A stretch of DNA of 64,000 nucleotides from Eledone cirrhosa (taxonomy: Eukaryota): positions 224,378,001-224,442,000 of the forward strand of contig OZ024742.1 of NCBI GenBank assembly GCA_964016885.1. Reading direction: 5' to 3'. The notes under the pieces were generated by a model, which saw only the letters and a list, made by a program, of their open reading frames with translations, did no database searches and was not told the origin of the DNA. Position 1 is the stretch's first letter; every line of letters starts with the position of its first letter. A program made the translations under genes and the position numbers. Positions 28,403 through 28,830 of this stretch are shown here, piece by piece.

Positions 28403-28822
28403 AATATAAACAAGGTTTAGCAAATAATGAAAAAGTTTCAAAATAAATTTTAAAAAATTGACTTCTCCTCTAATGTTGAGAACAAATTTGGTCGTTCCGA
28501 CTGCTGCTAGCGATAGCTGTGGCTGGTCTGACCTACCTCCTTCTGCCTCTATCTTTGCTTCGGCCCTTGATAAACCTGTTTCTACATCATCCACTCTCAT
28601 CCCGGGAACAGTTTTGATAGCGCTAGTCTGTAATTTAAATTCAGGAATTTTATATTCTTTGAATGAAAAGAACCTTCTGATGAGAATCTTTCTTTGCAAC
28701 GAAGGCCGTATGGTCTCCGTTTTATTTTGGGGATTCGAAACCGATCGGTAAAGGTAACTATAGTAGGTAAAGTCAATTTTTTAAAATTTATTTTGAAACT
28801 TTTTCATTATTTGCTAAACCTT

Positions 28823-28830
<8 letters not shown>
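28403..28830 (+). mobile_element. PLE-like element: inverted terminal segments of about 60 bp enclosing a complete HHR, ending in (TA)n
   Basis: 28403-28464 is the reverse complement of 28769-28830. Confidence 0.75.
28672..28755 (+). ncRNA. Complete type I hammerhead ribozyme with long stem II
   Basis: Stem I ACCTT/AAGGT; CTGATGA 28677-28683; stem II GAATCTTT/GGGGATTC; GAAA 28737-28740; palindromic ACCGATCGGT; predicted GUA cleavage after 28750. Confidence 0.88.

Follow-up and report, generated by a model that had tools for sequence, protein, structure and literature searches.

A hammerhead ribozyme motif in a young insertion, probably a Penelope-like 3' end, antisense within an octopod Irx intron

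An intron of an Iroquois (Irx) gene in the octopod Eledone cirrhosa holds a sequence resembling a hammerhead ribozyme, raising the questions of whether the motif is genuine, what brought it there and whether it could act on the surrounding gene. We analyzed a window of 64,000 nucleotides (assembly GCA_964016885.1, contig OZ024742.1, forward-strand positions 224,378,001 to 224,442,000), to which all coordinates refer. Descriptor scanning placed a type I hammerhead ribozyme motif on the + strand at 28672-28755, with every core position (C3-U4-G5-A6-N7-G8-A9, G12-A13-A14, A15.1-U16.1 and H17) present: CUGAUGA at 28677-28683, GAAA at 28737-28740 and U16.1/A17 at 28749/28750. Three helices surrounded this core, which was open at helix I. 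The intact core, 5-bp stem I (28672-28676 with 28751-28755) and 10-nt palindromic stem III (28740-28749) claimed in the initial annotation were all recovered, with the predicted cut site after A28750 (GUA). Stem II had the annotated 8 bp (28684-28691 with 28729-28736) and G-C closure (G10.1-C11.1), but only five of its pairs were Watson-Crick, the other three being G.U, and what had been described as a large loop (37 nt) contained a hairpin of its own (-9.7 kcal/mol), a stability equaled in 27 of 1,000 shuffles and thus of modest significance.

To gauge chance matches, the window was dinucleotide-shuffled block by block (500 nt each), and 2,401 such shuffles were scanned at three descriptor stringencies. 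Matches occurred in none of the shuffles at the stringency of the motif as found, in two at the middle stringency and in 130 at the loose one, compared to one, one and two matches, respectively, in the real window. A further motif, at 11261, shared the palindrome but had neither core nor stem I and was dropped. Rfam returned no match on the window at gathering score, and its 51 matches at E ≤ 10 within 28200-29000 were microsatellite-driven or otherwise weak and included no hammerhead family; this miss probably reflects the length of the stem II domain. The Rfam result could be taken to favor a chance resemblance to the hammerhead pattern, as could the minimum free energy (MFE) of 28660-28770, which was unremarkable (z = -0.31) and belonged to a structure other than the active fold. 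Given the empty shuffles at as-found stringency and a position and context that agree with published ends of Penelope-like elements (PLEs), we regard such a coincidence as extremely improbable. Judged by its sequence, the hammerhead was confirmed as a genuine self-cleaving-RNA motif above chance level, cleavage itself being predicted. Its earlier description as the best-formed single hammerhead holds in that no other motif passed the middle and strict descriptors; once published variants were admitted, seven three-helix hammerheads were found in the window.

PLEs typically carry an inverted, 5'-truncated copy at their 5' end and a tail on one end only, and Hydra-clade PLEs, including Hydra-1_Obim of Octopus, are reported to combine targeting of (TA)n with a hammerhead near the 3' end; (TA)n insertion is described for Hydra and Naiad, and a microsatellite bias is noted for Neptune (PMC8557442). 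Here, the hammerhead was situated in a forward, 5'-truncated copy of an element 3' end (28465-28830, +; non-coding as far as tested), sense to the element, with 80 nt between its cut site and the end of the element at 28830. Directly upstream was an inverted copy of 28770-28830 at 28404-28464 (-), a 5' inversion that excluded the ribozyme, whose cut site lay 20 nt from the nearer arm. The inverted copy of the 3' end had been annotated as 60 bp and measured 61 bp, with no mismatch between the arms (95% bound on divergence 4.8%). On the right, a (TA)n tract (28826-28871) overlapped the element end by TATAT microhomology. Left of the inverted arm, a unique sequence of 108 nt (28296-28403, -) intervened before a second (TA)n tract (28266-28295), the probable other half of a split target. 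These 108 nt are probably a one-sided extension, or tail, of the inverted arm, yet could be host sequence, as 17% of positions in the window had a TA tract equally close by chance. The candidate was longer than the other tails in the window (34-87 nt) and than the 30-40 bp described in the literature, and showed no significant similarity to six of those other tails (p 0.12-0.55). The identity of the arms indicates that the insertion is young, and its youth explains the intact core without selection.

Insertions of similar build were common in the window. Twenty TA-bounded segments contained an internal inverted repeat, and eight of the ten that scored at least 100, including 28296-28830, were flush at one end and extended by 34-108 nt on one side; of the remaining two, one was symmetric and the other an internal repeat. 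Several of these insertions held whole or partial hammerheads. In neighboring families the inversion point differed between copies and the extension could lie on either side. Since neighbors shared its layout while their inversion points varied within families, 28296-28830 is probably a single insertion, tail included.

Though the arms could instead be the 61-bp terminal inverted repeats of a MITE or other DNA transposon that duplicated a TA target and captured a hammerhead, this would leave unexplained why the ribozyme cuts 20 nt from one arm. The arms at both ends of 28404-28830 are indeed perfect, which counts for such an origin only if the element starts at 28404; TA dinucleotides occur at both junctions, and no coding capacity was found. 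However, inversion points that vary within one family and one-sided tails, as seen in neighbors of the same layout, are PLE behavior, and no duplication beyond TA was visible, a duplication of TA itself being indistinguishable within (TA)n. The 64-kb window held one copy of the element, too few to reveal either the many equal-length copies of a MITE or the variable truncation of a PLE. A DNA transposon is highly unlikely.

Several further insertions and motifs were recorded alongside. A ~1-kb inverted insertion between (TA)n tracts at 9752-10813 (arms 97.8% identical) consisted of 310-bp units in tandem and carried four Hydra-like, U.U-closed hammerheads; it resembles a retrozyme, though it could be an assembly palindrome. 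A U.U-closed helix II variant has been reported as active, and better so as a dimer (PMC7229834). The palindromic insertion at 19324-19627 carried one hammerhead per strand with U3-A8 core covariation, a variant reported among PLE hammerheads (PMC4209133), and its active fold was weak even alone. In a family of short hammerheads (25172-25356, 25420-25480, 32624-32794 and 47209-47345), four of six arms started exactly at core C3 and the 5' strand of stem I was always missing, which suggests that the template RNA had a fixed 5' end or that the master copy was truncated. Other TA-bounded inverted insertions, at 10824-11030, 28017-28148, 35710-35878, 59605-59812 and 33416-33694, had one-sided extensions of ~75-87 nt, and one of them lay only ~45 nt from the acceptor of Irx exon 3. 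Tails at 10824, 25278 and 28072 were alike (p 0.001-0.03). Decayed hammerhead-like motifs were found at 63203-63333 (+), 13008 (-), 18917 (+) and 43287 (+); the motif at 63208 had an 8-nt palindrome related to that of the 28672 hammerhead and a stem II domain of ~100 nt.

The PLE-like inverted-end architecture proposed earlier was supported by the inverted, 5'-truncated copy at the 5' end, the (TA)n target and the hammerhead near the 3' end and sense to the element; for the one-sided tail there was the 108-nt candidate, of a layout shared with seven other insertions. We evaluated coding evidence in a set of 160 high-complexity ORFs of at least 55 aa. No RT or GIY-YIG match was found near the element or elsewhere in the 105 ORFs scanned, which included all 14 between 26.9 and 30.3 kb; the other 55 lay at 0.6-3.1 kb, in mariner, LINE and SINE-like fragments, in the Irx homeodomain exon, at scattered positions or beyond 56.7 kb. 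A missing PLE ORF is expected for a 0.5-kb truncated copy whose parent would lie outside the window. A coding origin of the internal 200 nt was considered and rejected: neither open frame had a Pfam match, the + frame yielded nothing at E ≤ 10 among 222 candidates, and the single match of the - frame among 1.84 billion representatives (E = 1.6e-4, 20% identity to a 7,526-aa protein) was deemed spurious. From its anatomy, the element is best read as a young, 5'-truncated and 5'-inverted PLE 3' end in (TA)n. Very probably, then, the Irx intron of this octopod received a recent, dead-on-arrival 3' end (a pseudo-LTR fragment) of a PLE or of a non-autonomous derivative mobilized by one. In Octopus vulgaris, a table of young repeats contains 31 Penelope-like families with 336 insertions, which the context of the table suggests are active (PMC13282606). 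The GAAA-palindrome motif had no match in the supplement of PMC8557442 or in supplement file 2 of PMC4209133. As far as these searches reach, the family is undescribed; the variant may already be covered elsewhere.

PLE insertion is reported to involve nicking of both strands at AT-rich sites, with two staggered internal starts of reverse transcription that define the tail (PMC11167929). We postulate that a PLE endonuclease/RT nicked both strands of a (TA)n tract at this locus. One nick would have primed a cDNA of ~365 nt from an internal start by way of the TATAT microhomology, and the other a short opposite copy of ~170 nt (the tail plus 61 bp) starting ~108 nt further 3', after which both cDNAs would have been joined head to head. 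The hammerhead would thereby have arrived as cargo of a PLE fragment. In a tandem transcript of the parent, two copies of the motif would pair via the 10-nt palindrome and cut after GUA.

The same machinery might have acted on a different parent, namely the short tandem unit of a non-LTR retrozyme, copied via circular RNA and inserted here as a monomer. It has been argued that retrozymes derive from PLEs and are non-autonomous, the nearby insertion at 9752-10813 contains a 310-bp hammerhead unit in tandem, and the segment upstream of the ribozyme can pair with its 3' half, as in rod-like circles. Set against this, the element occurs once in the window, tandem units being confined to the unrelated neighbor at 9752-10813, and the upstream pairing was not significant (26 of 400 shuffles were as strong). 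The tail is also unlike the 5' part of the forward copy, implying that no circular unit closes within ~475 nt. We therefore think a retrozyme monomer unlikely, and continue with the PLE 3' end as the preferred reading.

Three Irx exons with canonical splice sites were mapped on the - strand: the matched part of exon 2 (55292-55519), whose donor marks the start of the 27.3-kb intron containing the element, exon 3 (27863-27970, acceptor AG at 27972-27971) and the homeodomain exon (~24700-25053, ends approximate). The last matched Iroquois proteins, the closest full-coverage match being P0003 (98%). Exon 1 and the exons past the homeodomain were not found in the window, so that, given a correct assembly, positions 1-55519 lie within the Irx gene. 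The ribozyme was 702 nt from the start of exon 3, as the initial annotation had it (about 700 bp). The annotation was also correct in placing the hammerhead antisense to Irx: with the ribozyme on the + strand and the gene on the - strand, it is unable to cut the Irx pre-mRNA in cis.

Coleoids show heavy A-to-I editing, and the host might have retained the insertion as a regulatory element. Either the ribozyme would process a transcript antisense to Irx, or the arms, as a 61-bp duplex, would act in the Irx pre-mRNA, for example as an editing substrate close to the exon 3 acceptor; the core and stems are intact, and on the Irx strand the arms likewise form a perfect duplex, which ends 434 nt from that acceptor. 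We consider a host-retained regulator very improbable: the identical arms signal youth, which accounts for the intactness without selection, hairpins of similar or greater length are common in the Irx introns of the window, transcription of the + strand has no support in the window sequence, and the active fold is disfavored once upstream sequence is included.

Other features of the window were a + strand, apparently intact non-LTR retrotransposon at 3048-8650, antisense within Irx, with two open frames (APE endonuclease, RT and zinc finger) and a related 3' fragment at ~21640-22530; among close relatives of the LINE RT in the window, a single one was named, from Argonauta hians (74%). A helix-turn-helix fragment at 18093-18419 (+; HTH_32 below the curated cut-off) is probably a remnant of a mariner-type transposase, a label assigned by inference, and a single C2H2 zinc-finger match below cut-off (25931-26128, +) lay in a repeat also present at ~51879-52298 and 37200-37800. 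A degenerate tandem array of ~122-bp period at 29825-30384 was related to 53846-53944. The Irx intron segment 29180-29440 was free of repeats and moderate in GC and contained TAATTA and ATAAA-like sites; our impression is that it could be a conserved enhancer.

Whether the motif could cleave was assessed with nearest-neighbor energies, which are estimates that omit tertiary contacts and Mg. In this model the monomer favored a misfold, with CUGAU of the core paired to the palindrome's 3' half, by 3.3 kcal/mol over the active fold, which made up ~0.5% of the ensemble; with at least 130 nt of upstream sequence added, the active fold was 7-9 kcal/mol above the ground state. A designed anti-ribozyme pairing by the upstream segment was considered and rejected, being equaled by the shuffles mentioned above. 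Two copies joined via the palindrome fared better by 9.4 kcal/mol (constrained active dimer -54.8 versus -45.4 kcal/mol for two monomers), with an inactive dimer alternative 1.6-2.0 kcal/mol below the active one (unconstrained MFE of the shortest construct, -56.4 kcal/mol). These modeled energies would fit a ribozyme built for the tandem RNA of its parent and silent as a lone copy. The copy in Irx, antisense to the gene and predicted to misfold as a monomer, is most likely inert.

A monomeric PLE hammerhead tested in PMC4209133 showed zero cleavage and dimers showed low cleavage, and another cut only in the presence of protein and was dispensable for insertion in vitro (PMC11167929). On these precedents, a failure to cleave in vitro would bear on the activity of the present motif and not on its PLE origin. 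We predict that an engineered dimer would probably cleave in vitro and find detectable cleavage by the short monomer somewhat doubtful; an effect of the ribozyme on Irx is hardly to be expected.

The initial annotation had raised an orientation bias from selection as a possibility. A wide scan admitting published variants identified 22 candidate cores, of which seven, in three insertions, had three helices (stem I at least 3, II at least 4 and III at least 3) and 15 lacked a helix; among the latter, 63208 (+) was borderline and may lie outside Irx. Three of the three-helix motifs were sense to Irx (9921, 10231 and 19432) and four antisense (10308, 10618, 19518 and 28677), and hence no bias was seen in the Irx introns. 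Six of the seven were in inverted insertions where, whichever strand is transcribed, their own antisense arm comes first. All three sense copies were thus masked by a preceding antisense arm, and unmasked motifs numbered none sense and one antisense, an uninformative count. For the sense tandem pair 10231/9921 folded alone, an active cis-dimer lay 1.4 kcal/mol above the ground state; with the preceding arm included, the model locked the pair in a long hairpin. As six of seven motifs are masked by an antisense arm transcribed first, the raw sense/antisense ratio is the wrong statistic for a bias among intronic ribozymes, and only unmasked copies should count; a strand-bias test that does not separate arm-masked copies would have its signal diluted toward 1:1.

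A bolder view, which we hold to be quite unlikely, is that PLE hammerheads cut host pre-mRNA enough to be purged and that 5' inversion defuses them. Where the inverted arm contains the ribozyme, the antisense arm would be transcribed first and would capture the ribozyme on either strand, and octopod introns would retain only hammerheads that are masked (9752-10813 and 19324-19627), broken (13008, 25480 and 32679) or antisense (the 28672 element). The window offered no exception, having no unmasked sense three-helix motif, and its three insertions are compatible with this view but too few to show it. Retrozymes are reported to be depleted from introns in Xenopus in a preprint whose text contains neither 'antisense' nor 'orientation' (bioRxiv 10.64898/2026.07.22.740005), and a published orientation-bias test of PLE ribozymes in introns was not found in the literature covered. 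If true, purging would provide a genome-scale test of cutting by PLE hammerheads in vivo, treated as an open question in PMC8557442 and PMC11167929.

PLE hammerheads number thousands per genome in several animals, and are mostly solitary with a long helix II (PMC4209133), so the element alone is of little consequence. Its longer palindrome makes it a handy construct for assays of monomer against dimer. The split into masked and unmasked copies is the main methodological gain, and a count across an octopus genome could show whether PLE hammerheads have catalytic relevance in cells.

The conserved intronic hammerheads HH9 and HH10 of amniotes are sense and ultraconserved. Like them, the 28672 motif is intronic, a single type I hammerhead within a protein-coding gene; unlike them, it is young and still within transposon ends, and it lies antisense, whereas a domesticated intronic hammerhead would be sense to the host pre-mRNA. 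Non-LTR retrozymes (PMC7229834; bioRxiv 10.64898/2026.07.22.740005) share with the element a non-coding nature, a type I hammerhead and a relation to PLEs, but consist of ~300-bp tandem units, in contrast to the single copy with a 5' inversion seen here. Closer counterparts are the Hydra-clade PLEs Hydra-1_Obim, Penelope-1_SK and Penelope-13_HM, whose entries (PMC8557442 Files S1/S2) have a (TA)n target, a type I hammerhead near the 3' terminus, a stem I of 3-6 bp and a palindromic stem III. Penelope-1_SK has a perfect 10-nt palindrome and Penelope-13_HM a 5'-truncated inverted copy, as found in our element. In contrast to that clade, the element has no ORF that would assign it to a clade, its sequence is unlike Hydra-1_Obim, and its stem II domain has 53 nt compared to ~10-25 nt in the Hydra rows. 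A precedent for a long stem II domain is PLE-X1_sMoe (PMC8557442 File S2), with a 9-bp stem II and a loop of ~35 nt, although that is an endonuclease-lacking, rDNA-targeting plant element with a short stem III. The minimal hammerheads of metazoan PLEs described in PMC4209133 resemble the 28672 motif in helix II (7-8 bp), helix I (4-5 bp), G10.1-C11.1 closure, palindromic helix III positions, mostly solitary occurrence and predicted dimeric cleavage. Ours differs from that set in a non-minimal helix III (in the monomer 3 bp capped by a tetraloop, in the dimer 10 bp), in having no extra nucleotide between A9 and G10.1 and in its long, structured loop II. The element thus belongs to the known class of PLE-end hammerheads, assigned by anatomy rather than protein, and is an ordinary remnant, one of several in the window and sharing its anatomy with seven other insertions.
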